DNA of 64,000 nucleotides from Candidatus Pacearchaeota archaeon (GCA_016866995.1 VGKQ01000001.1:16194-80193), one strand, 5' to 3'; positions 10,617 to 53,691 are shown, numbered from the stretch's first letter. The notes: generated by a model not told the origin, from the letters alone. Numbers and translations are program-made.

Positions 10617-10702
10617 GGGGCCGTGGGGTAGTCTGGTAGCCTTCCAGCCTTGGGAAAATCTCAAGAGAGTTGGCGACCCCGGTTCAAATCTGGGCGGCCC
10701 CA
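10617..10702 (+). tRNA. tRNA-Pro (anticodon UGG) with a 13-nt intron in the canonical position 37/38
   Basis: The acceptor stem is GGGGCCG/CGGCCCC with A73. The D-arm is GGGT-AGTCTGGTA-GCCT. The anticodon stem CCAGC/GTTGG encloses CTTGGG + aaaatctcaagag + A. The T-arm is CCCGG-TTCAAAT-CTGGG. Confidence 0.75.
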
Positions 10703-24600: not shown

Positions 24601-25221
24601 TTACATCCCATTTATTTCTTGTTCAATCATTGAAACATATTCTTTGTTGTCTTCCTTGTTTGTGCTGAGATATCCGATATTTTCATCTGAGTTAAACATG
24701 CTTACAAACTCAAATGCAAGCTTCCTGTCAATAATTCCAATTTTTCTCCTGTCTTTTCTCCTCATTATCTTAATTTTCTCTTTTTTCTTTCCAAGAAAAT
24801 CCAGCCTGAGTTCATCTATTGCAATCTCTGCCTTTTCTTCCATAAAATATTTTAACAAAAAAATAAGAAGTATTTTCTCATCTTTTAAAATAATCTGGGA
24901 AAATCTCTTGTTTAATATTCCAAAATGATTTTCAAGATATAATTTTTCAAGAAATGAGATAATTTCCAGGTCTGTGCTTGAATATAAAAATGATGGAGGC
25001 AGGAGAATATACGAAAAAAAATCCTGCTCCTCTGGCTTTGCTTTTCCTACTGCTCCCAATTCAAACAAGCTTTTCAAGAGCCTGTATCTCTTGCTGTAAC
25101 TAAATTCTTTCTCAAGTTCATTCTCTTTTTTCTTCAGAATTAAATAGTAAACCCTAGCCTCATCAAATCCGAGCACCTCTGAAAGCGCCTGTTGTGCAGC
25201 CCTATCCAGGAGATTGTTCAT
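24601..25221 (-). CDS. Hypothetical protein (206 aa)
   Basis: ORF only. Confidence 0.3.
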   Translation of the reverse strand: MNNLLDRAAQQALSEVLGFDEARVYYLILKKKENELEKEFSYSKRYRLLKSLFELGAVGKAKPEEQDFFSYILLPPSFLYSSTDLEIISFLEKLYLENHFGILNKRFSQIILKDEKILLIFLLKYFMEEKAEIAIDELRLDFLGKKKEKIKIMRRKDRRKIGIIDRKLAFEFVSMFNSDENIGYLSTNKEDNKEYVSMIEQEINGM

Positions 25222-25685
25222 GTTTATCTATCAGCATTTCTTTCATTTTTTCAACTCTTTCTCTGATTTCAGAAGCAAGATTTGCAGTTTCAGCATCTTC
25301 TATTTTTATTTTATCAATTGCTTCTAAGTCAGAGCTGATAAAATATAATCTTGATAATACTCTCTTTATTTTTGTTTTTTCAATTTCATTCATTCTCTTT
25401 ATTGCTCCATTCTATTCTATTTTCACATTCAGGGCATACATAAGCTTGTTCTTCAACCAGCACACTCATATTCACCCTTTTCCCGTTTTTTATACACTCT
25501 CTACAATACATAATATACTTAATTAAATTAAGTATATATGCTCTTTTTTTCATGGCTTTATGAATGTTTCAGCATTTTACTGAAGCTAACCCCATTCTTT
25601 CTTATAGAATACCTGCTGAAACTGCTGAACCAAAAGTTTAAATATCTGAACGTATTTAATAAATCAGGCAAAAAGAATAAAAAAT

Positions 25686-27260: not shown

Positions 27261-27414
27261 TATTTTAAAAAATAATAATAGAAAATATTAAGATGACTGA
27301 AATAAAACTGCAAGAATATAAAATAGCTAAAGATAATAAAACTGATAATAGCATAAATATAAAATATAATAACTTCTTGTTTTATTTAATTAAATTCTCT
27401 TTGCCAATATTAAG

Positions 27415-28071
27415 ATGACAGAAATAAATGGCGAGACAGCCCTTGAAGTCTGGAAAAAAGCTCTTAAACTTTTAATAGAGCAGGGAACAGATTATGAAGA
27501 CAGAAGAAACAGGATATGCCGCGAGTATCTTAACTTGATTCTTACAATTGAAGACACAAAAAATGTTGACAAGCCAGTAGAAGTTTTAAACAGCTTTGGA
27601 AAATGGGTTTATCCTCCAATTGAAGAGCTTAAAGCATTTTTCCTAGGAAAAAAAGAAGCGCCTGGATATTATTATCATTACGGAGACAGAGCATTCAATC
27701 CCGCATGGAGAAACCAGGTTGATGATTATATTATTCCTCTTCTCAAGTCAAATCCCACAACAAAAAGGGCAATAATTATATTTTACAATCCAAAAATTGA
27801 TTCATATGTCAACAGAAAAGAAATTCCTGGCCTGATTATGGTTAATTTTAATCTGAGAAAAAATAAGCTTCATGTTACATCAATAATAAGGAGCAATGAC
27901 ATGTTTCACGGCTGGCCCGGAAATGTCTGCCAGATAAACATGCTGCAGGAATACATTGCAAAACAAGTCGGATGCCAGGCTGGGAAGATAGTCACAATTT
28001 CCGTCGCTGCCCACATATTTGACGACCAGTTTGAAGACATAGAAAAAGTTATAGCAATGAAAGAAAAATAA
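27415..28071 (+). CDS. Thymidylate synthase (ThyA)-family protein, short archaeal form; the catalytic Cys is not evident
   Basis: AIIIFYNP aligns with (iivsaWNP), and IRSNDMFHGWPGNV aligns with (qRSCDvfLGlPFNI). The segment aligning with the PCH motif reads PGLIMVNF. Confidence 0.5.
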   Translation: MTEINGETALEVWKKALKLLIEQGTDYEDRRNRICREYLNLILTIEDTKNVDKPVEVLNSFGKWVYPPIEELKAFFLGKKEAPGYYYHYGDRAFNPAWRNQVDDYIIPLLKSNPTTKRAIIIFYNPKIDSYVNRKEIPGLIMVNFNLRKNKLHVTSIIRSNDMFHGWPGNVCQINMLQEYIAKQVGCQAGKIVTISVAAHIFDDQFEDIEKVIAMKEK

Positions 28072-28099
28072 TTTTTATAAATGAAACTCTTTTAATACT
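28072..28099 (+). repeat. Left copy of a 27-bp perfect direct repeat, ttttataaatgaaactcttttaatact
   Basis: It is identical to 30582-30608 and overlaps the stop of the nucleotidyltransferase gene. Confidence 0.8.
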
Positions 28100-29132
28100 T
28101 TCTACATATATCAAGCAAAATATCTCTTGGCTCTCTTTTATTTGTATATTTTATAAAATCCATAAGTGAAAAAACATCATCTATGCTGAATGCCTCATCT
28201 TCTTCAACAAAAAATACCTTAACTCTATTTTGTGAATAAAAATAATCTGAATTATTATTGCCTCTAATAAATCTTCTTGCAAATTCCATACCCCATATAC
28301 TACCACACTTTATTCCAAAATATCCTGCCCTTCCAAAATTAGGGTTTCCAAATTTATATATTTCCGCGACTCTGTCATCATCTATATTAAAATTTTGAAT
28401 ACTTAATCCAAGATTTTCTATACTTCCTGGTTTTACTATTATTGTAGCACTATTTTCAGGTTCATCTTGATAATGAAAATTTATTGCTCTTTCTAATATT
28501 CCTGGCTTTCTATAAACATCTGCAGTTAATCTTAATATTATATCAACTTCTCTTTTTTCTAAAGCCTCACTCATTCTTAGAAAAGCTTCTTGCTTGGGCG
28601 TCTGTCTTCCTCGCAAATAAACTATTTCTGGCATATTCCAAAATCTGCTAATTCTATTAACATTTTTCCCTGCAGAAACAAAATTTATATCACATTCCTG
28701 ATAAATTTCTTTTAAAACCAATCCTATAATATGTTCTAATTTTCCAAATACAGGAACTTCAATCAAAGGTTTACACTGATCTGCTCCAATTAATGACAAT
28801 CTTGTTCCATCTCCTCCTGCGAGAATAAAAGAAGCAATTCCTCGATTTTTTGAATTTCTACTAAAACTAAAATCATGACTTAAACCCGGCATAATATTAT
28901 TATAATGCAAAAAATTATACAAAACAATTACTTCAATAGCTTGGCTGATTTTTCTTTCTTGTCCTCTTACACTTGCAGTATATTGGAATTTTTTAATTCT
29001 TTCTAAATTACTGGAAATTAATTTATGAGCATAATCAATAAATAAAGCAGTAGCAATCCCATCATTTCTAAGTTGATTAACATAAGATAAATAAATTTCT
29101 TTAAAGACTTCTTCAAATTTCATTTTAGACAT
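28092..29132 (-). CDS. Nucleotidyltransferase-family protein (sugar-nucleotide pyrophosphorylase-like fold) with an extra N-terminal domain
   Basis: ILAGGDGTRLSLIGADQCKPLIEV matches the LAGGxGTRL...KPL NTP-transferase signature. Confidence 0.55.
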   Translation of the reverse strand: MSKMKFEEVFKEIYLSYVNQLRNDGIATALFIDYAHKLISSNLERIKKFQYTASVRGQERKISQAIEVIVLYNFLHYNNIMPGLSHDFSFSRNSKNRGIASFILAGGDGTRLSLIGADQCKPLIEVPVFGKLEHIIGLVLKEIYQECDINFVSAGKNVNRISRFWNMPEIVYLRGRQTPKQEAFLRMSEALEKREVDIILRLTADVYRKPGILERAINFHYQDEPENSATIIVKPGSIENLGLSIQNFNIDDDRVAEIYKFGNPNFGRAGYFGIKCGSIWGMEFARRFIRGNNNSDYFYSQNRVKVFFVEEDEAFSIDDVFSLMDFIKYTNKREPRDILLDICRKY

Positions 29133-29607
29133 CTATTTTTGAAACTGTTCCATCTTTTGTATCATAAATTATATAGCATGCGGGAATTTTTCTTCCCATA
29201 ATCTCCCCACAACACACCAACAAAGTGCCATCACTATCTCTTTCTATTTTAAAATCATGCAGATGTCCATAAAAAACAGCATCAAAACCTTTCAATCTTT
29301 TGGCTACTCTTTCTTCATGCGTGAATCCAATCTTTTTTTTATCAACTTTAAGTTCTCCAAAATCTTTGAAAAATTCTATATTAGCTTCTCTACACCCATC
29401 TACTAATCTATAATTTTTTATGTCAGAATCGCTGAAAACCAGATACTGCTTTTTTACAAGATTTTTTAATTCATTAATTATAAACGGAGAACATATATCC
29501 CCACAATTTATTACTGCTATTATTTCTGTATTAGAATTAATACTTTCTATAGCTTTTTTAAGATTCCATATATTGTCATGAATATCTGAGATAATTGCTA
29601 TTTTCAT
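29125..29607 (-). CDS. Metallophosphoesterase (calcineurin-like, YfcE/MJ0936 family)
   Basis: It carries IISDIHDN, GDICSP and GHLHD, the canonical phosphoesterase motifs. Confidence 0.8.
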   Translation of the reverse strand: MKIAIISDIHDNIWNLKKAIESINSNTEIIAVINCGDICSPFIINELKNLVKKQYLVFSDSDIKNYRLVDGCREANIEFFKDFGELKVDKKKIGFTHEERVAKRLKGFDAVFYGHLHDFKIERDSDGTLLVCCGEIMGRKIPACYIIYDTKDGTVSKIDV

Positions 29608-30545
29608 ATTATTTTGTCAATTATTTTTTGAGCGTCTCCTCTTACATAAATTATTGTTTCAGCAGAGTCTATTAAATTTTTTACGAATTCAGCCCTTTTA
29701 TTCATTTGCTCTTCATTATCCAAAGAAGGAATGGGGAGGCTATAATAAAGCAATGAAGTATTTCTTATCCTATTTGTTATTTGTTCATATATTTCTGAAG
29801 CCGCTTTTCTTTTATTTTTACAAGGAAGTATAGTAACTTTAGAATCTTCTATAATATGAGGGAATATTATAGTCAATTTTGGATTTAATATTTTGCTTCT
29901 GTATTTAAAAATATTTAGATTTATAGGGGTTTTTTCATAAAATTTGTTCACATTTTCAGTAATATTTTTTATTTTTTTAAATTTAGATAAAGTTTTATTA
30001 TTTATTGGAGAAAAAGCACTTGTTGGAAATATAATATATTTTTTATTTTCTTCCTTAATTGATGAAAGATCATTTCCTAATATCATTAGTCCTTTTTCTA
30101 CTGCTGCCAACAAACATGTTGTTTTACCACTCCCAGCATGCCCAACAAACATAAAAACTTTGTTTGTTTTTTTATCAATTACGCTACTTGCATGAATATT
30201 ATATATTTTTAATTTTTTTTCCAAACACAGAAGAACATAATTATATATAAAATATCTTAAAATACTATGTACTTCCCCAAACTTTTTTTCTAATTCTGAA
30301 AAAGGTCCTCTTAAAAAAAGAGTATTGTCTTTAATCATAAATTTAAGAGGATTATTATCATCTATAATATAACAATAAAAATCAATATTTTGCTGTTTGT
30401 CTTTTAAAACAATAAAATTTTCTTCAAATTTCTCTTTTAGTTTTATTTCTAACTTTCCATTTACAAAATCAAGGATATTTGAAACTAATTCAAAATTTAT
30501 ACCAAATACAGAAATTTTCTTACGATACATATTTAATTCTTTCAT
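29604..30545 (-). CDS. HPr-kinase-related P-loop kinase-like protein
   Basis: MFVGHAGSGKTTCLLAAVEKGLMILGNDL resembles the HprK C-terminal domain (GxSGxGKS...GhrLvaDD). Its stop overlaps the start of the phosphoesterase gene. Confidence 0.5.
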   Translation of the reverse strand: MKELNMYRKKISVFGINFELVSNILDFVNGKLEIKLKEKFEENFIVLKDKQQNIDFYCYIIDDNNPLKFMIKDNTLFLRGPFSELEKKFGEVHSILRYFIYNYVLLCLEKKLKIYNIHASSVIDKKTNKVFMFVGHAGSGKTTCLLAAVEKGLMILGNDLSSIKEENKKYIIFPTSAFSPINNKTLSKFKKIKNITENVNKFYEKTPINLNIFKYRSKILNPKLTIIFPHIIEDSKVTILPCKNKRKAASEIYEQITNRIRNTSLLYYSLPIPSLDNEEQMNKRAEFVKNLIDSAETIIYVRGDAQKIIDKII

Positions 30546-30581
30546 TAAAAATAATCACTAAAAAGCATACTTTAATCAGCC

Positions 30582-30608
30582 TTTTATAAATGAAACTCTT
30601 TTAATACT
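30582..30608 (+). repeat. Right copy of the 27-bp perfect direct repeat, ttttataaatgaaactcttttaatact
   Basis: It is identical to the left copy and lies 37 nt upstream of the kinase start on the minus strand. Confidence 0.8.
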
Positions 30609-30646
30609 GAAAGTCTTATTAAAATTCCTTGTTTTCCTGATATTTT

Positions 30647-30982
30647 ATGCCAAATATTATTGAATTATATTTTTTTCAGAACAAGTATAATCAATCTGAA
30701 TCAAAAGAAGCGAAATTTATTTCAAGGATTAAAGAAATTTTTCCAGAAATTCAAGTAAAAGAGATTGATATTGTAAAGGCAGCAACGCCTGAATTTTCAG
30801 AAATTGCTCTTGACTTGATAAAAAATCAAGGAATTATTTCTCTGCCAATTGTAATAATAAATGACAAATTAATAAGCAAGGGGAAATTGCCAGATATTCA
30901 AGAAATAATTGAGGAATTAAGGAGCAAGCAGGATATCAGCGAGAAAATAAGAGACATGTTTAACAAATTTCAGGATTTTTAA
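30647..30982 (+). CDS. Hypothetical small protein (111 aa)
   Basis: ORF only; it may have a thioredoxin-like fold but there is no CxxC. Confidence 0.3.
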   Translation: MPNIIELYFFQNKYNQSESKEAKFISRIKEIFPEIQVKEIDIVKAATPEFSEIALDLIKNQGIISLPIVIINDKLISKGKLPDIQEIIEELRSKQDISEKIRDMFNKFQDF

Positions 30983-31197: not shown

Positions 31198-33573
31198 TTA
31201 TGAAGCAGAGTTGTACATTCTTGCTATAATTGTGCAGTCAGCAGGATTTGGCTGATTTCCACTTGAGTCTACGCATTTGATATAATAGTTTGTGCTTGTC
31301 TTCCAGTCAGTATAATGATATGTTGTGTTTGCATATAATAATTGTGTTCCGGTGTTTAATGCAAAATTGCACTTCTGATTTACAGCTTCTGAATAATAGC
31401 AAGTTGATTTCTCATTTGTCTCAATTCTTAATTTTCCTCCTTCATTATACAGCCTTGTAACAAACGGAGCCTGCCTGTCTACTTGCACTGTAAATTTTGT
31501 GGAATTGTAGTCTGCATTATTTCCCAAATCAACGCACTTGAAATAATATGTGTATGTTCCAGGAGGCAGCTGCTGATTTTGCTTGTGTTTGCTTGAACCA
31601 GTTTCAAACATTTTTATGTAGCTTGAATCAGTATTTTGCTGGGAATAATAGCACATTGCATCTCCATTATTAAAACCGTTTCCTGTTTCAACTTCCAAAT
31701 CAACAGAAACAACATTTGCATATCCCTGAACTGTTCCGTTCGGTCCTGTTTTCAAAATATTCACAGGCTGTGTTCCTTTCAATATAAATGGATAGCTTTC
31801 TGCATTTGTATTTCTGTCATTTTGATTTTCCAGTGTTGGCTGGTCTCTGCATCTGAAGAAAAACTGATTGTCTTTTCTGTTTTCCAAGCCATTTAAAGTT
31901 GTATAGCACTTGTAAAGCATATTATTATTTATATTCCAGACATTCTGCGCACAAGTCATTGTATTTTCCATCAAATCATAATCTTTATCCTGCTTGCTCC
32001 ATCTGCAGTCAGCAGGCTCGTTTGTATAAACTTCTATATCTGTCTCATTCAAGCCAAACTGGAAAGGCATTCCAGACGGAATGCTTGTCCCAACAATTTC
32101 AGGAGGAGTTGTGTCAGGCCCTTTTTCAACGCAGAATCTTATTGCAAATTCATCCTCATTTATATTTCCATTCCCGTCCTGGCATCTTACATATAAAGTG
32201 TATATTCCGTCATGCTTGAGTTCAGGAGATGCATTCTGCATTGCACTTGGGCTTGGAAGTCTTAATGTCTGGCTGTGATTGTAGTCATACAAATTACTCT
32301 CTCCAAAATAAAACTGCATGTTTGAGTATGCGTTCTTGACATCTCTTACGTTTACAGTGTGATTATAATCTATTTTGCATTGTGTAGGCTCATTAGTTGA
32401 AATTCCAAATGTTATTGGAGTAAAAGCTTTAATACAGCCATCTGAAGCAGCATCTCTTGTAACTCTCATTCCTGTTCTAGGCGGACGTATGTTTACATCT
32501 TTATACGAGTGTCCTTTGCTTAAAACTTCCAGCCACGGAGCTATTGTCGGAGATGTTACATCATGAGGATTTTTCCAGTAGCACAACAATCCTTCTTTGC
32601 TTGGAACAACATCACATCCCTGCCCGAGTGATTTGCATCTGTATTCAGAACACGGACGCATTAAATCTTTATTGCATAACTCACAATATTTTCCTCCTGT
32701 TGGAGCTTCATATGGCTTGCATTCAAATACAACTTGTTTCTTGCTTTCTTTTTTCCATAACATATTCAAGACAAGCAATCCAACTCCAACTGCAATTCCC
32801 AAGCTTAAAAGCTGAGCCTGTCCTGCATTTGCCAAGCCAAGAGGCAATCCTTCAGTAGCTTTCGCACCCCAGACAGCTTTTCCTCCTCCCCACATCTCAA
32901 GATTTAATCCTTTTCCTGTTAAAATAGGTGATAATATCTGATATGTCATTGCTCCTGCAAATGCAGCCACTCCAAGAGCTTTCTGATTATTCTTGCTCAA
33001 TCCAAACATTCCTCCTCCAAGATATCCCACAAGCCCTATAACTCCTGCATAAAATAATGAACTGATAATAGAATCAGCTGCCAATGCTCCGAGAATATTC
33101 GAGCTTGCAGCAGCTCCTCCTGTCCCAGATGTTCCTACTTCTACAAGTTTGTTGCCTGCTCCCATTTCATATATTTTGTTTTTATACATAAGCTGACTTA
33201 AATCAGCATTAAATCTTACTTCTGACAGAGGAACTGCTCCTATGCCAGGTATATTAACACTATTTCCAAGAAGAAATCCTGAAAAAGGGTCTCCGGGCTT
33301 CATAATTCTTGTAAAAGCTTCTGCAACCTTCACAGGAGGGGCAACAGGGGGCGCAGGCGGAGGATTTGTAGCAGTAAGAATAATATTTGTTGTTGGTGTA
33401 GAATGATAGCTTAATCTTAAATCCATTGGTTTCAAAGATTCTTCTATGCTCGGCAAGCCAGGTACTTGAGCATCAGCAAGAGAAATCAAAAATGAAAAAG
33501 CAGCAACAGCTATAATTAAATCTGCAATTATAAAAATTGCTTTACCCCTTTTTCCCTCTTTTTTATTTCTCAT
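31198..33573 (-). CDS. Cysteine-rich membrane/surface protein, 'C-module' (791 aa), paralogous to the C-terminal half of 36989..41053
   Basis: It has an N-terminal TM, a Gly/Ala-rich multi-helix region and a Cys-rich ectodomain. Shared blocks with the giant protein include CKPYEAPTGGKYCELC... vs CKPWQPPVGGSDCDKC..., ADCRWSKQDK and PFVTRLYNEGG vs PYVTRVYNSQG. Confidence 0.6.
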   Translation of the reverse strand: MRNKKEGKRGKAIFIIADLIIAVAAFSFLISLADAQVPGLPSIEESLKPMDLRLSYHSTPTTNIILTATNPPPAPPVAPPVKVAEAFTRIMKPGDPFSGFLLGNSVNIPGIGAVPLSEVRFNADLSQLMYKNKIYEMGAGNKLVEVGTSGTGGAAASSNILGALAADSIISSLFYAGVIGLVGYLGGGMFGLSKNNQKALGVAAFAGAMTYQILSPILTGKGLNLEMWGGGKAVWGAKATEGLPLGLANAGQAQLLSLGIAVGVGLLVLNMLWKKESKKQVVFECKPYEAPTGGKYCELCNKDLMRPCSEYRCKSLGQGCDVVPSKEGLLCYWKNPHDVTSPTIAPWLEVLSKGHSYKDVNIRPPRTGMRVTRDAASDGCIKAFTPITFGISTNEPTQCKIDYNHTVNVRDVKNAYSNMQFYFGESNLYDYNHSQTLRLPSPSAMQNASPELKHDGIYTLYVRCQDGNGNINEDEFAIRFCVEKGPDTTPPEIVGTSIPSGMPFQFGLNETDIEVYTNEPADCRWSKQDKDYDLMENTMTCAQNVWNINNNMLYKCYTTLNGLENRKDNQFFFRCRDQPTLENQNDRNTNAESYPFILKGTQPVNILKTGPNGTVQGYANVVSVDLEVETGNGFNNGDAMCYYSQQNTDSSYIKMFETGSSKHKQNQQLPPGTYTYYFKCVDLGNNADYNSTKFTVQVDRQAPFVTRLYNEGGKLRIETNEKSTCYYSEAVNQKCNFALNTGTQLLYANTTYHYTDWKTSTNYYIKCVDSSGNQPNPADCTIIARMYNSAS

Positions 33574-34330: not shown

Positions 34331-36157
34331 TTACATCACTTTTAAGCTTTCTAATAATCCCTGATTTATTGATTTATTTTGAATTTCAGCACTGGCTGTA
34401 GACAATCCTAAAAGCCAGTCTCCCCCCTTAAGCAAAGGCAAAAATAATTTTGTTCCAGAAACTCCAAAGCCACTTGAAAGATATTTGTAAACTCCTTCTG
34501 AGCCAGTGCAGTCTCCCAAAGCCCTGCAGATTTCTTCATTTTTCTTCTGCCAAGTATCACCCCCGCACTCGCAATTCTCAACACAATCCTCACTCCCTCC
34601 AAACAATCCTTTTTTCTCATACTCAATTGTGCACGCAGCATTTCCAAGGCTGCATTGTGATTGCGCCTCTCCTGCCTGCCAGAATTTCAAGCCAGGAGGA
34701 TAATTAGGCACACAAACCGCTCCTTTCAAAGTTTTTGGTTCATTTTCATCTTCTTCATCTCCTCCAAGAATTCCTGAAGAAGTTGTTTTCTCGGGCTCTG
34801 GAAAGCTTCCTGAACTTGAGCTTGTGCTTGCCTGAACTCCTGCAAGAATGCTTGTTCCAATTGCCCCTTCAATCCACTGGCAGTCTCCTTTGTCAACATT
34901 CTCACAGTCTTCTTTTGTCTTGAATGTCACGCAATTCTGCCACCTGTTTGCAATACACCCTGCCTGCTGAAAATCTCCTTTATCAGTTGTAATTTTATCT
35001 TGTAAACAAATCTCTGCTCTTAAATCAGCGCACGGCTCTACAAGCTCCTCGCCAGCAACGCAAATATGCTTCCAGTATCTTGAGCCAGCAGGATCTTTTC
35101 CTTTCCCTGTTCCATCATCATATATGCACCAGCTTTCACCATGTCGATAATCTTTTCCATCTTTTGTGTTCTTGCAGTTCAAATCCCTGCATATAAAATC
35201 TCCATATGTCGGCCTTCTTGCATCCTTGCTTGCATCATACTTCCTGCAAAAACTTCCGCCAAAATAATCACAATTTCCACAAGATACAGAATTTGCATTC
35301 GAGTTTGTATTTCCAGCCCCGCACGAATCTTTCTTTTCAATAATTTTTCTCCAGTATGCAGGCTCATCAATTTTTGCAGCATCATAAATATTCGCAGGAT
35401 TCCCGCACGTGTCCTTGAAATAAACTTCATCTCTTCCATCCACACATCCTGTTTTAACTTCTCCTTTGCTGTTTCTTCTTGCGCAGTTTGTTCCAAGCTC
35501 TTCAGCAGTGCACAAATAATCTTTGTGAAAGCTCGAGTTGCCTGTATAATTTCCTGTTTTCTTTTTCATTGCCTCGCACTCTCCTTTTGTTGTGAACTTG
35601 CATGTTTTTGTAAAATCCTGCTCATACACGCACGCTCCTTTGTCCTGGGCATGCGCAAGTGCAATGCATGCTGTTTCTGACTGAACATCTGTTCTGAAAT
35701 TAATCTGAACTCCAAAAAATGAAGAAAGCTTTTTGCATCTTACAAGAGTTACAAATGCTGCCTGGTCGCTGAATACACAGCATCCTAAATTGCATTGCGG
35801 AATTTCACATTTTGCAGAATCTGCCCATGTCCCATTGCTCGCCTGGCACACTAATTGCGGAGTGTTTTCCATGCATATTCCTTCCTTGCTGTCATAACAG
35901 CATCCCTGCCTGCAGTAAGATGTTGCATCGCATGATGTTGGAGTTATTCTAAAGCCAGAATCACAAGATTGTGTCAATGCATTCTGGCACCAAGCTCCAT
36001 AAATTGTTTTTTCACAGCAGACATTTGTCTGCTGTGCTGATGTTTGTGTTAATACAATAATAGACAATAAAAAAGCCATTCCAATAATTACAAAAGAAAA
36101 TATCATTCTCTTGATTAATTCTCTTTTTCTTTTTTCTTTAATCTTTTTTTGTTTCAT
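34331..36157 (-). CDS. Cysteine-rich membrane/surface protein, 'N-module' (608 aa), paralogous to the N-terminal half of 36989..41053
   Basis: An N-terminal TM is followed by a Cys-dense ectodomain (CC pairs). The 20-aa block CVDGRDEVYFKDTCGNPANIY is identical to one in the giant protein, and the two share a 60-nt identical DNA tract. Confidence 0.6.
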   Translation of the reverse strand: MKQKKIKEKRKRELIKRMIFSFVIIGMAFLLSIIVLTQTSAQQTNVCCEKTIYGAWCQNALTQSCDSGFRITPTSCDATSYCRQGCCYDSKEGICMENTPQLVCQASNGTWADSAKCEIPQCNLGCCVFSDQAAFVTLVRCKKLSSFFGVQINFRTDVQSETACIALAHAQDKGACVYEQDFTKTCKFTTKGECEAMKKKTGNYTGNSSFHKDYLCTAEELGTNCARRNSKGEVKTGCVDGRDEVYFKDTCGNPANIYDAAKIDEPAYWRKIIEKKDSCGAGNTNSNANSVSCGNCDYFGGSFCRKYDASKDARRPTYGDFICRDLNCKNTKDGKDYRHGESWCIYDDGTGKGKDPAGSRYWKHICVAGEELVEPCADLRAEICLQDKITTDKGDFQQAGCIANRWQNCVTFKTKEDCENVDKGDCQWIEGAIGTSILAGVQASTSSSSGSFPEPEKTTSSGILGGDEEDENEPKTLKGAVCVPNYPPGLKFWQAGEAQSQCSLGNAACTIEYEKKGLFGGSEDCVENCECGGDTWQKKNEEICRALGDCTGSEGVYKYLSSGFGVSGTKLFLPLLKGGDWLLGLSTASAEIQNKSINQGLLESLKVM

Positions 36158-36988: not shown

Positions 36989-39900
36989 TTATGCTGCTCT
37001 ATTATATGTCCTCACTTTAATTGAACATCCATAAGGCTCATTTCTCCACGCATCTCTGCACTTGATATAATAATTCTGCTGGCTATTCCATTCAGCAAAA
37101 TGCTCCTGAGTAAATCCTCCCTGCATTAATGTTCCATTTTCAAATATAAACCCGCAGTTCTTGTCTGTTCTCGAGTAGGCACATTCTGAATTTTCATTTG
37201 TGAAAATATACAGGTCTCCTTGTGAATTGTAAACTCGGGTTACATATGGCGCAGAAGTGTCAACACTCAATTTGAAATTTGAGCTTGCAGTTGCATAATT
37301 AAATCCAGCATCAACACATATAACATCAAGATTATATTCGCCTGCCGGCATTGATGTCAGTGTTGCTCTATGCACATTTGAGCCAGTGTTTCTAAATATA
37401 TCATACCAGTTTCCAATTACCCACGAGCATATTGCCTTTCCATTTTCTGCTCCTCCTGAAGTTTCTGCTCTCAAGTTAATAGAAATTGGCTCAGAGCCAA
37501 AAGAAAATGTCCCATTTGGCTCAATTTTAGTTATAGTCAGCTGGGTTTGTGGCACTTTTAATTTATAGACATAACTTTCTACATTTACATTCCTGTTTGA
37601 TTGATTTGCAGTTCCTTCCCATTCTGGATGATCCTTGCATTTAAAATAAAATGTATTCTCGCCTTTTGCCAAATTTGTTAAAGTTGTATTGCACTGCCAT
37701 AATAAACTATTTGAGTTGCATACAAATGAATTTTCCATTGCTGTATAATTCTTATCCTGTTTGCTCCATCTGCAGTCAGCTTTTTCATTTACAAAAATAT
37801 TTATTTCCTTGTCAGTTTGATTGAAAGCAACAAAAGCATTATTTAATGGATTGGTTGATACTATCATCGGCGCTGTTTTGTCAGGCCCCTCTCTTGTGCA
37901 TATATCAATTACATATTCCTGGCTGGATTTTCCAAAAGCATCCTGGCATCTTGTATAAAGCCTCATACTTCCAAGTTTATCAAGTACAAATTGTATTTCT
38001 GCATCTGACTGGTTTAAACCAAGCAGTTCTGCAGCAGCTTCTCTGCTTGGCATTGAAAACCCCATGGAATGATTTTCAAGATATAAATTTGAGTCTCCAA
38101 AATATTCAGCCATGTCTTCGTATTTTGCCTTGCTTGCAACATCAATCTTGCACTGGGAAATTTTATCTGTTTTTATTCCAAACAAGAAAGGAGTAAATAC
38201 AGGAATGCAGCTTCCATCTTTCTCTCTGATTTTAAATCCAGTATTGCTCACATTCATATATGAAAAATTTCCATTTAAAATTTCATACCATGGAGAAATT
38301 ACAGGAGCCTGCCCATTATCTGCAACAGCTGAGCATTTTTCCTGAGATGTTCCCTCGTTAAAAAACCGGCACGCTGTTCCAAGTGACTGGCATCTATATT
38401 TTGAGCACGGCTTTAATGCATCTTGTGAACATTTGTCACAATCACTTCCGCCAACAGGAGGCTGCCACGGCTTGCATGTATATGTTACTTTAACTGTCTT
38501 GCATACTTTTCCAACCCCCATGATTTCGAAAAATGACATGATAATAATTGCCACAATTACTCCAAAAACTATATTGCCTATACTTAATCCTCCAATTCCA
38601 ATTCCTGAAGCAGAAATACCTCCTTCGAGAGCTCCAGTTAAAGCATAAGTTAAGGCTTGGCCAAAACTCCAGCCATATACATTCATTCCATAAATAGTAG
38701 CAGCAGTATATGCTGCAGTCACTCCTGCAGCAGTTCCTGCAAACATTCCTGTTTGGCTTGTCTGAATTCCAAGCATTCTTAAAATAAGAGGAGCAATTGT
38801 CATGATTATTGCTGTAACCACTAATAAATTTGAAAACGCTGTTATAACTGCGCCAGGAGTTACTCCTGAAGTTATCGGCGCTGGAGGAGTTGTTATTCCT
38901 TCTGCAGCTGCAATTTCTCCAACACTTCCAACACTATTGCCAGCACTATCTAACAAAATTGTATCTGCAGCCAAATTTATTGACTCTCCCCCCATTGCCG
39001 TAGGAGCAACACTTATTTCAGGGCTATATGGAACATAAAATAAACTAGGCCCACTTTGTCCAGTAAGTTCAATAATAGCCATTTTTGTTCCTCCTTCACT
39101 AAGATAAGCAAATCCTTGAAATGTTGCAGGCACGCTTGTAGCACCAGATGCAGCCCCTCCTGCCCCTCCACCCCCACTAAAAATTCCTGCAAACATAGAA
39201 CTTTCTCTTGCTCCAACCACCCCCTTAGTCAGGCTGGAAAGAGCAGTTCCTCCATTCATATAATCAATAATCAACCCAGCTCCTGCAATTCCCAACCCAT
39301 ACATTAAATTTGCTTCTTTCTCTTTTTCTCCTCCAGGCATTCCAAGCTCCTGCAATGAAGTTAAGTTTCCTACAAGTTGTTGAATTGTTCCTGATTCTAC
39401 TTTCTGTCCAGCAACAGGAGTTGCATATTTTTTATACTGCTCTAATAAAATTTTGGGAGCTCCAGAAACAGTGTATCCTGCATCTGTAACTTTTCCAAGA
39501 ATATTTACATAAGCACCGCAATCTCCAAGTGAAATGCACAAGTCATTCATCTGCTGTGTGAATCCAATTTTCTCGCAGTTGCAGTTCTGCTCGCACTTGC
39601 ATTTCCCCTTCATATCTTTAATATAAATGACAGTGCATGTCTGAGTAGCCATTCCGCAAATCTGCTCAGCAGCTTTTCCTCCTGCTTCTGTTGACAAGTC
39701 AAATCCTTCTGGATATTTTGGAGCGCAAATGTCAAACTTAAATCCCTTGTCAACATTTACATTTTTTACAAAACAATCAAATCCAGTGCATCCATCTTTA
39801 TTTGCATTTGAGTTTATGCACTTCTGCCACTGATTCACTCGGCAAGAAGCACTTGAAAATTCCCCTAATGCAGTAGAAGTATCACTCTGAACACAAATTT

Positions 39901-41053
39901 CATTCCTGAAATCAGCGCACGGCTCTGATTTCACCTCGCCTTCAATGCAGGAATATTTAAAATGCCGAGAGCCAACAACATCACTTGAAAATTTATTACC
40001 TTCAACAACACCAATGCTTCCGTCATAAACACACCAAGATTCCCCGTTTCTTCTATCCTGCTTTCCGACATTGGCAGGAGCATTTTTACAAGATAAATCA
40101 GAGCAGATATAATTTCCTTTGTCTGGCTTTATTCCTGTCTCTTTATAATCCTTGCACTTGCTACCAAGATAATAATTGCAGTTTCCGCAAGTCTTGCTTC
40201 CTGCGTTTCCGTTTGCAGATTCAAGAAAACACGAATTTTCTTTTGGAATTATTCTCTCCCAGTAGCTCTGGTTGTTTATTTGGGAGACATAATAAATATT
40301 CGCAGGATTCCCGCACGTGTCCTTGAAATAAACTTCATCTCTTCCATCCACGCATGTTGTTTCTTCTGTTTTAGTGCACGAAGAATTCAGCAAACTTGAT
40401 GTGCATAAAATATCCTGGTAGAAATTATTATTTCTTCCTGTTAGTGATGAACACTCCTGTCCTGTCAGAATTTTGCATCCGCCATTATTAAGCATACAAG
40501 CTCCCTTTTTCTGCGCCATGCCAAGTGCCAGGCAGCTGAATTCTGTATTTACTGCTGCCCTGAAATCTGTTCTTAATCCTGATTCTGCAGACAATTTCTC
40601 GCACCTTCTGCTCGTAACAAACATTGTGTTTCCTCCAAGAATACAGCATCCAAGCCTGCATTCAGGAACAGAATTTATATTGCAGTTTTCGCTTTCATCC
40701 CAGCTCCCATGCTGTCTTATACAGGTTGCTTTTGGAGAATTTACAGAACAGGTTCCTTCTTCAGCATCATAACAGCACCCTGTCTGATAGTCAGAAAGTT
40801 CAGAGCATTTTGTAGGCAGGCATGTTTTTGTGCATTCTTGTGCGCAAGTGCTTGAAGGATAATCTTGTCCAAGTCTTCCATATTTGTCTTCAGGACAGCA
40901 TTGTTCATTTTCAGCGCTTGCTTCATCAATGCTTGCAATCATCCATGCAAAAGCAAAAGTTGAAAGAACAAGAATAAATATCTGCAGATAGCTTACTCCT
41001 GCTTTTCCTTTTATCAATTTATTTCTGTTTATTTTTACAATTTCCTTTTTCAT
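36989..41053 (-). CDS. Giant cysteine-rich membrane/surface protein (1354 aa) = N-module + Gly-rich TM region + C-module
   Basis: The N-terminal half is homologous to 34331..36157. The C-terminal half is homologous to 31198..33573. The central Gly/Ala-rich hydrophobic segment is like the N-terminus of the 791-aa protein. Confidence 0.65.
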   Translation of the reverse strand: MKKEIVKINRNKLIKGKAGVSYLQIFILVLSTFAFAWMIASIDEASAENEQCCPEDKYGRLGQDYPSSTCAQECTKTCLPTKCSELSDYQTGCCYDAEEGTCSVNSPKATCIRQHGSWDESENCNINSVPECRLGCCILGGNTMFVTSRRCEKLSAESGLRTDFRAAVNTEFSCLALGMAQKKGACMLNNGGCKILTGQECSSLTGRNNNFYQDILCTSSLLNSSCTKTEETTCVDGRDEVYFKDTCGNPANIYYVSQINNQSYWERIIPKENSCFLESANGNAGSKTCGNCNYYLGSKCKDYKETGIKPDKGNYICSDLSCKNAPANVGKQDRRNGESWCVYDGSIGVVEGNKFSSDVVGSRHFKYSCIEGEVKSEPCADFRNEICVQSDTSTALGEFSSASCRVNQWQKCINSNANKDGCTGFDCFVKNVNVDKGFKFDICAPKYPEGFDLSTEAGGKAAEQICGMATQTCTVIYIKDMKGKCKCEQNCNCEKIGFTQQMNDLCISLGDCGAYVNILGKVTDAGYTVSGAPKILLEQYKKYATPVAGQKVESGTIQQLVGNLTSLQELGMPGGEKEKEANLMYGLGIAGAGLIIDYMNGGTALSSLTKGVVGARESSMFAGIFSGGGGAGGAASGATSVPATFQGFAYLSEGGTKMAIIELTGQSGPSLFYVPYSPEISVAPTAMGGESINLAADTILLDSAGNSVGSVGEIAAAEGITTPPAPITSGVTPGAVITAFSNLLVVTAIIMTIAPLILRMLGIQTSQTGMFAGTAAGVTAAYTAATIYGMNVYGWSFGQALTYALTGALEGGISASGIGIGGLSIGNIVFGVIVAIIIMSFFEIMGVGKVCKTVKVTYTCKPWQPPVGGSDCDKCSQDALKPCSKYRCQSLGTACRFFNEGTSQEKCSAVADNGQAPVISPWYEILNGNFSYMNVSNTGFKIREKDGSCIPVFTPFLFGIKTDKISQCKIDVASKAKYEDMAEYFGDSNLYLENHSMGFSMPSREAAAELLGLNQSDAEIQFVLDKLGSMRLYTRCQDAFGKSSQEYVIDICTREGPDKTAPMIVSTNPLNNAFVAFNQTDKEINIFVNEKADCRWSKQDKNYTAMENSFVCNSNSLLWQCNTTLTNLAKGENTFYFKCKDHPEWEGTANQSNRNVNVESYVYKLKVPQTQLTITKIEPNGTFSFGSEPISINLRAETSGGAENGKAICSWVIGNWYDIFRNTGSNVHRATLTSMPAGEYNLDVICVDAGFNYATASSNFKLSVDTSAPYVTRVYNSQGDLYIFTNENSECAYSRTDKNCGFIFENGTLMQGGFTQEHFAEWNSQQNYYIKCRDAWRNEPYGCSIKVRTYNRAA

Positions 41054-52833: not shown

Positions 52834-53691
52834 TCAAATATTGCCTGTATGCACGTTTTTCATTCCAAGCTTTCTTGCAACTTCAGCAGCATGAATTACT
52901 GTCTCTGCAGGTGTTTCTTTCACATTTACAAGCTTATAGTGAGGAAAGAATGCTGAAAAATGCAGAGGAACATCATCAGAAAGATTAACTTTAATCCAAA
53001 AAACAATTTTTTTGATTTCAGAATCAGAATCATTTAATCCGGGAATAAGCAGATTTGTAATTTCAAGATGCTTTCCTGCTTTATGTATTATTTTAATTGT
53101 TTTTAGAACAGGCTGAATTCTTCCGCCACAAATTTTCTCGTAAAACTTATCATTTCCCTTTAAGTCTATATTAAAAGCATCAATAAAAGGAAGAAGCTGT
53201 TTTAATGGCTCTGGATTTATGTATCCGTTGCTTACCATTGCTGTTTTCATTCCCTCTTTTTTCGCAAGTTTTGCAATATCAAGCATGTACTCGTAAAAAA
53301 TTGTAGGCTCTGTGTAGGTAAATGATATTATCTTGCTGTTCACATTTTTTGCCATTTCAATTATTTCTTGTGGAGAAGCTTCTCTTATTTTCTCAATAAA
53401 CTTCTGTGAAATCTGCCAGTTCTGGCAGTGCTGGCATGATAAATTGCAGCCAAAAGTTGCAAGAGACAATGTTTTTGAACCAGGATAAAAATGATATAAT
53501 GGCTTTTTTTCAATAGGGTCAAGGGCAATTGAACACGGCTTTTCATAAACAAGAGAAAACAATTTTCCTGTTCTATTCTCTCTCACCTTGCATTTTCCCT
53601 TTTCCCCGTTTTTCAGTGTGCAGAAATGCGGGCATAACTCGCATTGAACAATCCCACTTCCAAGCTTTTTGTAGAATAAAGCTTCTTTCAT
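52834..53691 (-). CDS. AmmeMemoRadiSam-system radical SAM enzyme (PFL-activase-like)
   Basis: The N-terminal CELCPHFC and the radical SAM cluster GCNLSCQHCQN are present, with a typical length of ~285 aa. Confidence 0.75.
   Translation of the reverse strand: MKEALFYKKLGSGIVQCELCPHFCTLKNGEKGKCKVRENRTGKLFSLVYEKPCSIALDPIEKKPLYHFYPGSKTLSLATFGCNLSCQHCQNWQISQKFIEKIREASPQEIIEMAKNVNSKIISFTYTEPTIFYEYMLDIAKLAKKEGMKTAMVSNGYINPEPLKQLLPFIDAFNIDLKGNDKFYEKICGGRIQPVLKTIKIIHKAGKHLEITNLLIPGLNDSDSEIKKIVFWIKVNLSDDVPLHFSAFFPHYKLVNVKETPAETVIHAAEVARKLGMKNVHTGNI

Follow-up and report, generated by a model that had tools for sequence, protein, structure and literature searches.

How did three closely packed minus-strand genes come to lie between a thymidylate synthase gene and a thioredoxin-like gene on an archaeal chromosome, and what might their products do together? 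The locus occupies positions 28,072 to 30,608 of a 64,000-nt stretch of a Candidatus Pacearchaeota archaeon genome (GCA_016866995.1, VGKQ01000001.1:16194-80193), which we refer to as the window. A sequence-only reading had described the three genes as bracketed by a perfect 27-bp direct repeat, and re-checking the coordinates confirmed two exact copies. On balance, we favour a recent, target-duplicating insertion of an AT-rich operon with kinase, nucleoside monophosphate (NMP)-transfer and diesterase function, taking these elements together. The features that bear on this reading are given below, with lengths in nucleotides (nt) and amino acids (aa); NTase stands for nucleotidyltransferase.

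27415..28071, plus strand: left flank, thyA, an archaeal-type thymidylate synthase gene
28073..28099, plus strand: repeat copy 1 (R1), starting 1 nt past the thyA stop codon
28092..29132, minus strand: NTase-like gene, 346 aa, without a detected homologue
28100..30581, no strand: putative inserted segment, 2482 nt (2509 nt including one repeat copy), missing from the sister-lineage contigs L031-L036
29125..29607, minus strand: predicted phosphodiesterase gene, 160 aa, YfcE/MJ0936-type
29604..30545, minus strand: kinase-like gene, 313 aa, predicted mini-PEPCK/HprK-fold P-loop kinase of an unnamed family
30554..30558, minus strand: putative Shine-Dalgarno-like GTGAT, 9-13 nt upstream of the kinase ATG and outside the repeat
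30582..30608, plus strand: repeat copy 2 (R2), immediately 5' of the conserved trx promoter-like motif
30609..30625, plus strand: putative trx transcription factor B recognition element (BRE) and TATA box, GAAAGTC followed by TTATTAAAA, kept in empty-site relatives and outside the repeat
30647..30982, plus strand: right flank, trx, a thioredoxin-like gene

A direct repeat around three packed genes

The 27-mer, R (TTTTATAAATGAAACTCTTTTAATACT), occurs in exactly two perfect copies in the window, both on the plus strand, and the cassette takes up the whole interval between them. Identity between R1 and R2 breaks off sharply at either edge of each copy, and no third copy is present in the window when up to three mismatches are allowed. 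Chance does not explain the pair: a repeat of this type arose in 0 of 100 dinucleotide-preserving shuffles, and R ranks second by length among the exact repeats in the 64 kb, the only longer one measuring 60 nt. On the minus strand, the NTase-like gene ends within R1, whose last 8 nt provide its final two codons and its TAA. R2 lies 37-63 nt upstream of the kinase ATG, with the minus-strand TTTATAAAA within it 37-45 nt upstream. Within the cassette, the kinase and phosphodiesterase genes overlap by a true 4-nt ATGA, as had been reported, whereas the 8-nt overlap reported for the NTase-like gene holds only with the ATG at 29132. From the ATG at 29123 (343 aa), the start used in public gene calls, there is a 1-nt gap. 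The three genes are tightly packed whichever start is used.

The sequence of R itself raises the question of whether it is a reusable regulatory module, such as a terminator, promoter or transcription-factor site, unrelated to the arrival of the genes. R contains an archaeal TATA-like TTTATAAA and a T-run, R2 lies at a plausible operon promoter distance, and R1 follows a stop codon. We nevertheless regard this explanation as highly unlikely, given that convergence would not yield 27/27 identity with sharp edges, that relatives hold a single orthologous copy at the same place, and that R has two copies only in 64 kb and none in other collections. In exact scans with position 9 left free, R was found in none of 185,579 GTDB representative genomes and nowhere in IMG/VR, and it is from these GTDB and viral scans that we judge its spread. 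It was also not found in JGI metagenome contigs, a negative of little weight since that collection is without the R-carrying lake contigs described below, nor beside the kinase gene pair of a relative, L008. The generic, dispersed promoter or terminator that the sequence-only reading had held out as an alternative can thus be set aside.

The trx core promoter lies outside R; R was considered for this role and rejected, as the conserved BRE/TATA sits just beyond it. In a survey of 48 upstream regions of the window, a TATA-like element, usually after AAAG[GA], starts 28-32 nt before most start codons. Because the survey places such elements at -28 to -32, GAAAGTC-TTATTAA probably represents a (near-)leaderless trx promoter, and this motif is common to all three lineages compared below (the window, L031-L035 and L036). 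On the minus strand, TTTATAAAA at -45 together with GTGAT at -13 to -9 would make a plausible leadered promoter for the operon.

Empty sites and the history of the probable insertion

Comparison with related genomes provides the main evidence for an insertion. Lake metagenome assemblies identified by exact-protein look-ups carry the same locus at ≥99.85% identity to the window, and every lake contig spanning it has the cassette and both repeats. In two sister lineages, trx follows directly after thyA and the cassette is absent. Three further sequences that cluster with the thyA protein at 90% identity led to their contigs (L031-L035 and L036). To the left and right of the spacer, these contigs keep the gene order of the window (524-aa gene, thyA, thioredoxin-like gene, ~800-aa gene and onward) at 77-88% nucleotide identity, L031-L035 being 77-87% identical over the two flanks. 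In L031, 18 nt stand in for window positions 28070-30587 and the spacer reads TAA-AAATGAAATCCTTTCAATCTTGAAATGAAACTCCCTCATTTTT-GAAAGTCTTATTAA. In L036, the spacer holds an unrelated filler of ~90 nt that matches nothing among the loci compared in this analysis, and homology to the window picks up exactly at 30591, which is repeat position 10. Between R and the native spacer, 17 of 27 positions agree and there is a 3-nt gap; R1 and R2 agree at all 27. Because the native spacer aligns with R, R is target-derived sequence that has been duplicated. The duplication is also nearly complete, as R plus one T makes up the whole distance from the thyA stop to GAAAGTC-TTATTAA, so that 27 of the 28 spacer bases are duplicated.

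Several observations bear on the age of the cassette. The GC content at third codon positions (GC3) of its genes is the lowest of 65 window open reading frames (ORFs), at 0.135, 0.14 and 0.186 against a mean of 0.28 (standard deviation 0.05), and the kinase gene has the lowest overall GC in the window. In addition, the orthologous spacer has diverged by about one third while R1 and R2 are identical. A further indication comes from SRR7008010, in which the locus is split: the first of three contigs stops at 28080 (repeat position 8), the second covers 28051-30620 and the third begins at 30591 (position 10), with neighbouring contigs overlapping by exactly 30 nt. This overlap would equal k-1 for an assembly at k = 31, which appears to have been used. 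The breaks suggest an alternative path in the assembly graph that diverges after repeat position 8 and merges again at position 10, most simply as a 61-nt arm that runs through one repeat-like site and has another base at position 9. Such a path points to a within-species empty-site allele in the SRR7008010 population, putatively reading thyA-TAA-T-TTTTATAA[N]TGAAACTCTTTTAATACT-GAAAGTC, with N a non-A base at repeat position 9. Two unrelated single-nucleotide polymorphisms, at 28050 and 30621, were judged a much less likely cause of the breaks, because bubbles of this kind are normally collapsed in assembly and because both breaks fall at one repeat coordinate, which would have to coincide by chance. 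Together, the deviant GC3, the identical repeats and the SRR7008010 graph pattern argue for a recent gain and not an ancient state. The earlier suggestion that the repeat marks an insertion is therefore well supported, by the empty sites in two sister lineages and by this graph branch.

The opposite polarity would have the cassette ancestral at this site and deleted from the sister lineages by recombination between R1 and R2, with the old repeats kept identical by conversion or selection. By their thyA sequences, and at 92% nucleotide identity, the two empty-site lineages are more alike than either is to the window, which makes one loss as parsimonious as one gain, and two degenerate tandem R-like units in the L031 spacer are readable as a scar. 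However, these units are without the TTTTAT prefix expected of an R-R scar, the two copies are identical at 27/27 positions against 17/27 for the orthologous spacer, GC3 is strongly deviant in all three genes, and the NTase-like gene draws its stop codon from spacer sequence. Ancestry of the cassette at this site is thus very improbable in our judgement. Distant thyA relatives in a Woesearchaeota metagenome-assembled genome (L025-L027) were tried as an outgroup and discarded, as they are without the thyA-trx adjacency.

Apart from the question of polarity, the thyA-trx spacer is a hot spot for insertions and deletions (L031 2620-2665; L036 3527-3645). The R-like units of L031 are each 22 nt long, and repeat position 9/10, immediately ahead of TGAAAC, is a boundary common to three independent structural differences: the L036 filler, the window cassette and the SRR7008010 branch. 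In the Woesearchaeota genome mentioned above (CAYIVX01), a 385-aa tyrosine-recombinase-like ORF (...DFRHNACCYW...; L027 6792-7949) lies directly 3' of thyA. The same genome holds a pair consisting of a ~500-aa gene and thyA in three copies, with a different downstream neighbour each time.

What could have moved the cassette? Profile searches detected no transposase, integrase or recombinase domain in the three cassette proteins, the cassette ends have no terminal inverted repeats, and no recombinase is found among the 25 listed of 42 Pfam families matched by the 56 other window ORFs. The cassette therefore has neither the transposase gene nor the terminal inverted repeats of an insertion sequence or transposon. 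Of the marks of an attachment site (att)-type integrative element, it shows direct repeats at its borders and an empty site in relatives, but not an integrase of its own. R was also considered as a dif/Xer site of the kind used by IMEX-type elements and rejected: its arms do not form an inverted repeat, and sister species conserve it poorly.

One alternative consistent with this pattern is a non-autonomous, att-flanked mobile unit, repeatedly excised and integrated at the 27-bp site by a recombinase encoded elsewhere. The perfect, sharply edged repeats with no recombinase between them would fit such a unit, as would the putative alternative allele within the species in SRR7008010, the boundary common to three structural differences, and the recombinase-like gene directly downstream of thyA in the distant relative L027. 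Against these stand the lack of a recombinase among the Pfam families listed for the window, the fact that R is neither palindromic nor dif-like and was found nowhere else, be it beside the L008 kinase pair or in the scanned collections, and the failure to observe a circular form or a second integration site. We consider repeated mobility of this sort possible but unlikely. The cassette resembles att-flanked genomic islets and cis-mobilisable elements in having cargo between target-derived perfect repeats, an empty site, deviant composition and no recombinase aboard. Unlike them, it has a 27-bp repeat that is nearly the whole spacer and its target is neither a tRNA gene nor dif; no recombinase was identified in the 64 kb, and there is no sign that it has moved repeatedly.

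In the insertion that we favour, the operon would have come recently from an AT-richer donor and duplicated its target, either because a break with ends staggered by 27 nt was filled in or because an enzyme encoded outside the cassette recombined it into an att-like site of 27 bp. Such a duplication would spare both neighbours, with R1 retaining the thyA stop and T-run and R2 holding the trx promoter in place. At the same time, R1 would supply the last codons and stop to the third cassette gene, and the minus strand of R2 would supply the TATA-like TTTATAAAA at -45, which would drive the operon in combination with the GTGAT outside the repeat at -13 to -9.

The three proteins and their genetic partners

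The kinase-like protein belongs to a sizeable family without a name. A word-based search returned a single relative, P0002, at 58% identity, and an exhaustive profile search recovered 186 cluster representatives at E<=1e-3, mostly of ~300-350 aa. A second search listed 120 members, every one either without a name or called 'hypothetical protein' and devoid of Pfam domains; where a source is given, it is mostly Chloroflexota/Anaerolineae, with one Methylomirabilota. Established profiles match the window protein only below their thresholds: PEPCK_ATP (PF01293) scores 19.1 bits against a gathering threshold of 26.5, and HprK_rel_A and HprK_rel_B (TIGR04352, TIGR04355) score 12.5 and 12.7 bits against a cutoff of 200 (E about 0.05), with no match to Hpr_kinase_C or TIGR00679 (hpr-ser) at E<=0.1. 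Weak matches recur among 42 relatives (HprK_rel_A in 9, PEPCK_ATP in 6, FomB kinase in 3, hpr-ser in 3 and Hpr_kinase_C in 2). Those to HprK_rel (9/42) reach 2e-5, and those to hpr-ser or Hpr_kinase_C (2-3/42) lie at ~2e-3 to 4e-3. A scan of viral contigs found no relatives of the kinase, and PADLOC and PHROGs gave no meaningful match for any of the three cassette proteins.

Structural modelling places this family more clearly. An AlphaFold model from the 42-sequence alignment (predicted local distance difference test, pLDDT, 93.3; predicted template modelling score, pTM, 0.90) contains both the C-terminal P-loop kinase domain fold of HprK and the overall two-domain fold of PEPCK. According to this model, the protein is a two-domain 'mini-PEPCK' in the PEPCK/HprK superfamily, outside any named family. 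The HprK-like kinase of the sequence-only reading thus stands at the level of a PEPCK/HprK fold and falls as to membership of the HprK or HprK-related A/B families. The refuting outcome named in that reading, a lack of HprK-fold similarity, did not arise. Relative to known members of the PEPCK/HPr kinase superfamily, the window protein shares the fold but is shorter (313 aa versus ~530 aa), scores below all family thresholds and has a different gene context. Residues E109, H118, G135, G140 and K141 are invariant in the family. The motif stretch IHASSV-x12-GHAGSGKTT-x15-GND is arranged like the active sites of PEPCK and HprK; when its motifs are set against those of PEPCK, Walker A presumably comprises K141/T142, and His118 and Asp159 are the presumed manganese ligands. 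From this comparison, the catalytic apparatus appears intact.

The middle gene had been called a metallophosphoesterase, and profile and structure matches agree. The 160-aa protein matches Metallophos_2 (PF12850) at E 3e-21 (76.5 bits against a cutoff of 27) and TIGR00040 at 61.2 bits (cutoff 56.25), and its closest solved structure is MJ0936 (E 6.5e-17), in a full-length match. Judged by these similarities, it is a YfcE/MJ0936-type metallophosphodiesterase, with which it shares the full-length match above cutoff and the Asp/His metal-ligand motifs, residues D8, H10, D37, H97, H115 and H117 all being present. Of the full motif set (DxH, GD, GNxD, H, GHxH), it differs from this type in motif III (residues 59-62), where the window reads SDSD, L008 reads SNSD and other relatives read GNxD, so that a conserved metal-binding Asn is Asp in this species only.

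The third protein is harder to place. It consists of a ~95-aa helical N-terminus followed by a region resembling sugar-phosphate nucleotidyltransferases (ILAGGDGTRL), and this region has several weak matches to sugar-1-phosphate nucleotidyltransferases. The match to the NTP_transferase profile (PF00483) covers positions 3-139 of 245 and scores 21.3 bits, the threshold being 21.2; with the protein truncated, the score is 19.6 bits. Within the limits of word-seeded search, the protein finds only itself among 5.8 billion clustered proteins; no homologue is present in the window, the fetched loci or the viral contigs, and phmmer against the PDB returned only a spurious PurE match. The earlier nucleotidyltransferase label keeps its GGDGTRL motif and a borderline score, and no detected homologue backs it. 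Origin as a paralogue of a resident gene was rejected, as tblastn gave no match and a 16-mer in common with position 53690 is an intergenic chance match. The ORF is probably a real gene that arrived with the other two: by our own estimate, the chance of a 346-codon ORF at 28% GC is ~1e-13, which makes a chance ORF very unlikely, and its GC3 equals that of the kinase gene, which speaks for co-arrival.

Gene contexts of the kinase family offer clues to function. In every DPANN-type relative examined (L008-L010, L017/L018, L022, L023/L024, L037 and L038), the kinase gene is followed by an MJ0936-like gene, usually with a 4-nt overlap (seen in the window, L008, L017, L024 and L037). The nucleotide similarity between the window and L008 (70%) is confined to these two conserved genes, spanning exactly 29123-30546. 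In five contigs (L017, L022, L024, L037 and L038), an RtcA-like gene lies immediately upstream of the kinase gene, the genes mostly overlapping; it is absent from the window and L008, and L023 has a truncated remnant. The RtcA-like proteins match Pfam RTC at 1e-34 to 1e-39 and TIGR03399 at 1e-35 to 1e-43, under the equivalog cutoff. They retain the nucleophilic His that is adenylylated and the GxGQxxR motif, and differ where the alignment places Arg43 of E. coli RtcA and the Gln after it, residues that bind the RNA 3'-phosphate in that enzyme. The NTase-like gene is absent from all seven relatives' contexts that were read. The recurring cassette of an HprK-like kinase and a nucleotidyltransferase suggested in the sequence-only reading is thus not borne out, and the recurrent partners of the kinase are instead the phosphodiesterase and an RtcA-like cyclase.

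Two further observations concern L008. A pair of small genes, encoding a 61-63-aa protein (40% identical between the loci) and a zinc-ribbon ORF, occurs at 25202-25553 in the window and at 1901-2190 in L008. The kinase pair of L008 follows it directly, whereas ~4 kb, including the 524-aa gene and thyA, separate the two in the window. The idea that L008 and the empty-site relative L031 derive from one genome was dismissed on their GC contents (0.285 vs 0.356).

In bacterial members of the family, the kinase gene is translationally coupled to a gene for ComA, of the phosphosulfolactate synthase family (L019/L020, L028/L029, L030 and L039). The L039 operon runs ComA, kinase, Ldh_2 (a ComC-type dehydrogenase) and a putative exporter (PF03601), and other bacterial neighbours include LarA, 2-hydroxyacid dehydrogenase, PGK, GAPDH, ROK and GntR. 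By our own reasoning, this context suggests a kinase for a small 2-hydroxy-acid, for example one converting sulfolactate to phosphosulfolactate, from which ComA running in reverse would yield phosphoenolpyruvate and sulfite. The bacterial operons look like an undescribed route by way of a kinase for sulfolactate or a similar 2-hydroxy-acid.

For the cassette, the enzyme classes suggest a sequence of three reactions. The kinase, using ATP, would first phosphorylate a substrate hydroxyl. An NMP-transferring enzyme would then activate the resulting phosphomonoester as an NMP-phosphate adduct, the NTP_transferase-like protein serving here and the RtcA-like cyclase in relatives. Finally, the MJ0936-type phosphodiesterase would cut the diester, pyrophosphate or cyclic phosphate so formed. 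RtcA transfers NMP onto RNA 3'-phosphates and sugar-phosphate nucleotidyltransferases transfer it onto sugar phosphates; the two may therefore be seen as non-orthologous replacements for each other. The bacterial contexts favour a small hydroxy-acid or sugar as substrate, and the RtcA-like partner favours an RNA end. From the bacterial operons, the ancestral type of substrate would be a small 2-hydroxy-acid, for instance sulfolactate, with an RNA end as the main alternative for the DPANN branch. We hold out less hope for a wider formulation, which we think rather improbable, in which a hitherto unrecognised DPANN pathway of kinase, phosphodiesterase and interchangeable NMP-transferase (RtcA-like in most lineages, NTP_transferase-like in the window) is carried here on a recombinase-less cassette with a specific 27-bp site and a hot spot at repeat position 9/10.

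The RNA alternative can be stated more sharply: the DPANN kinase/phosphodiesterase pair, with an RtcA-like or NTase-like partner, may be a Pnkp-like end-healing module that acts on 5'-OH and on 2',3'-cyclic or 3'-phosphate ends. RtcA-like genes encoding the catalytic His are translationally coupled upstream in at least five contigs. Kinase, binuclear metallophosphoesterase and NMP-transferase also come in the order of the domains in Pnkp (polynucleotide kinase-phosphatase-adenylyltransferase), a parallel to Pnkp RNA repair enzymes and RtcA operons that would be in keeping with such a role. However, known polynucleotide kinases have an NMP-kinase-type P-loop fold, not the PEPCK fold, and the cassette has an NTase-like protein in place of a lysine-adenylyltransferase. 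Moreover, the operons that hold the kinase gene in bacteria are of a small-molecule type (ComA/ComC/exporter), the RtcA-like proteins fall under equivalog cutoffs with the positions of Arg43 and the next Gln changed, no ligase, Hen1 or RtcB gene adjoins, and the window cassette is without RtcA. An RNA end-healing role is therefore a minority possibility, which we doubt.

A function on peptides or small molecules had also been suggested as possible for the cassette, with a small precursor ORF nearby as something to look for; its known counterpart would be the tailoring of phosphorylated or glycosylated lasso peptides. Lasso-peptide tailoring does pair an HPr-kinase homologue with a nucleotidyltransferase, the pairing to which the suggestion corresponds, and such pairs exist in lasso clusters (PMC8498205). 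The weak HprK_rel_A/B matches (E about 0.05 in the window; down to 2e-5 in 9 of 42 relatives) lean the same way, and the pair of paeninodin and pseudomycoidin is alike in setting a distant HprK-superfamily kinase beside a nucleotidyltransferase, with a hydroxyl phosphorylated and then elaborated. Yet the window kinase reaches 12.5 bits against a cutoff of 200 and belongs to another family, the pairing with an NTase-like gene is not conserved in relatives, and the host is a DPANN archaeon. The core genes of a ribosomally synthesised and post-translationally modified peptide are also missing: the cassette holds no precursor, PqqD/B1, B2, C or transporter genes, and its flanks are thyA and the thioredoxin-like gene. 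The NTase family of the cassette, too, presumably differs from that of the lasso pair. We consider a lasso-type role scarcely credible.

Returning to the insertion of a kinase, NMP-transfer and diesterase operon, the reading that we favour, a number of points weigh against it. As to the insertion, its polarity comes from two empty-site lineages that possibly form one clade, for which a single loss of an ancestral cassette would be an equally short history, and the within-species empty allele is deduced from contig ends only. A 27-bp target duplication is far above the length usual for transposition, with no enzyme identified, and a duplication that nearly equals the entire spacer would be rare for a random staggered cut. 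The proposed kinase TATA at -45 is farther upstream than the -28 to -32 usual in this genome. As to function, the NTase assignment comes from one borderline Pfam match (21.3 versus 21.2 bits), the single-sequence AlphaFold model of this protein is unusable (pLDDT 33), and the motif-III Asn of the phosphodiesterase, present in 4/4 relatives aligned, is Asp in the window. Finally, the order of kinase, NMP transfer and diesterase is reasoning from enzyme classes.

The surrounding window and the significance of the locus

The window is chromosomal and not obviously a plasmid or virus. Its other genes are housekeeping in character and include those for an aminoacyl-tRNA synthetase, FtsZ, ribosomal protein L11, Spt5/NusG, PCNA, Hjc, TruB and diphthamide synthesis. 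Identical proteins are deposited at NCBI for Candidatus Pacearchaeota archaeon under locus tags FJZ19_00285 to FJZ19_00300, on a contig of 88.8 kb. At 10617-10702, ARAGORN reports a tRNA-like gene with undetermined anticodon, for which the Rfam tRNA model is below threshold; it may be an intron-containing or aberrant tRNA.

Other repeats occur in the window. The start region of thyA (ATATTAAGATGAC[T/A]GAAATAAA), at the end away from the cassette, is duplicated in an imperfect direct repeat of 46 nt (76%; 27261-27306 and 27383-27428, 122 nt apart). Its upstream copy opens a 41-aa ORF (27293..27418) beginning MTEIK, which is the N-terminus of the sister-lineage thyA protein (MTEIKGE); the window thyA protein begins MTEING, and L031 has only a 54-nt spacer upstream of thyA. 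The longest exact repeat, of 60 nt (75 nt at 95%; 35384-35443 and 40292-40351), lies inside genes 34331..36157 and 36989..41053, which encode paralogous large cysteine-rich secreted or surface proteins. Genes 31198..33573 and 36989..41053 are likewise paralogous (35% aa).

Our analysis provides, for a DPANN genome, a clean pair of filled and empty sites in which 27 bp of target are duplicated; the pair can be compared base for base and is free of mobile-element machinery. The locus is a datable example of gene gain, and the acquisition of genes by reduced DPANN genomes is little understood. In addition, it brings to light an unnamed family of mini-PEPCK-fold kinases with two conserved contexts, alongside RtcA-like and MJ0936-like genes in DPANN archaea and alongside ComA, ComC-type and exporter genes in bacteria, both of which are open to biochemical testing. 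To our knowledge, no natural substrate is known for MJ0936-type phosphodiesterases, and we know of no description of an operon link between MJ0936 or YfcE and a mini-PEPCK-like kinase. The kinase family supplies these phosphodiesterases with a first genetic partner.

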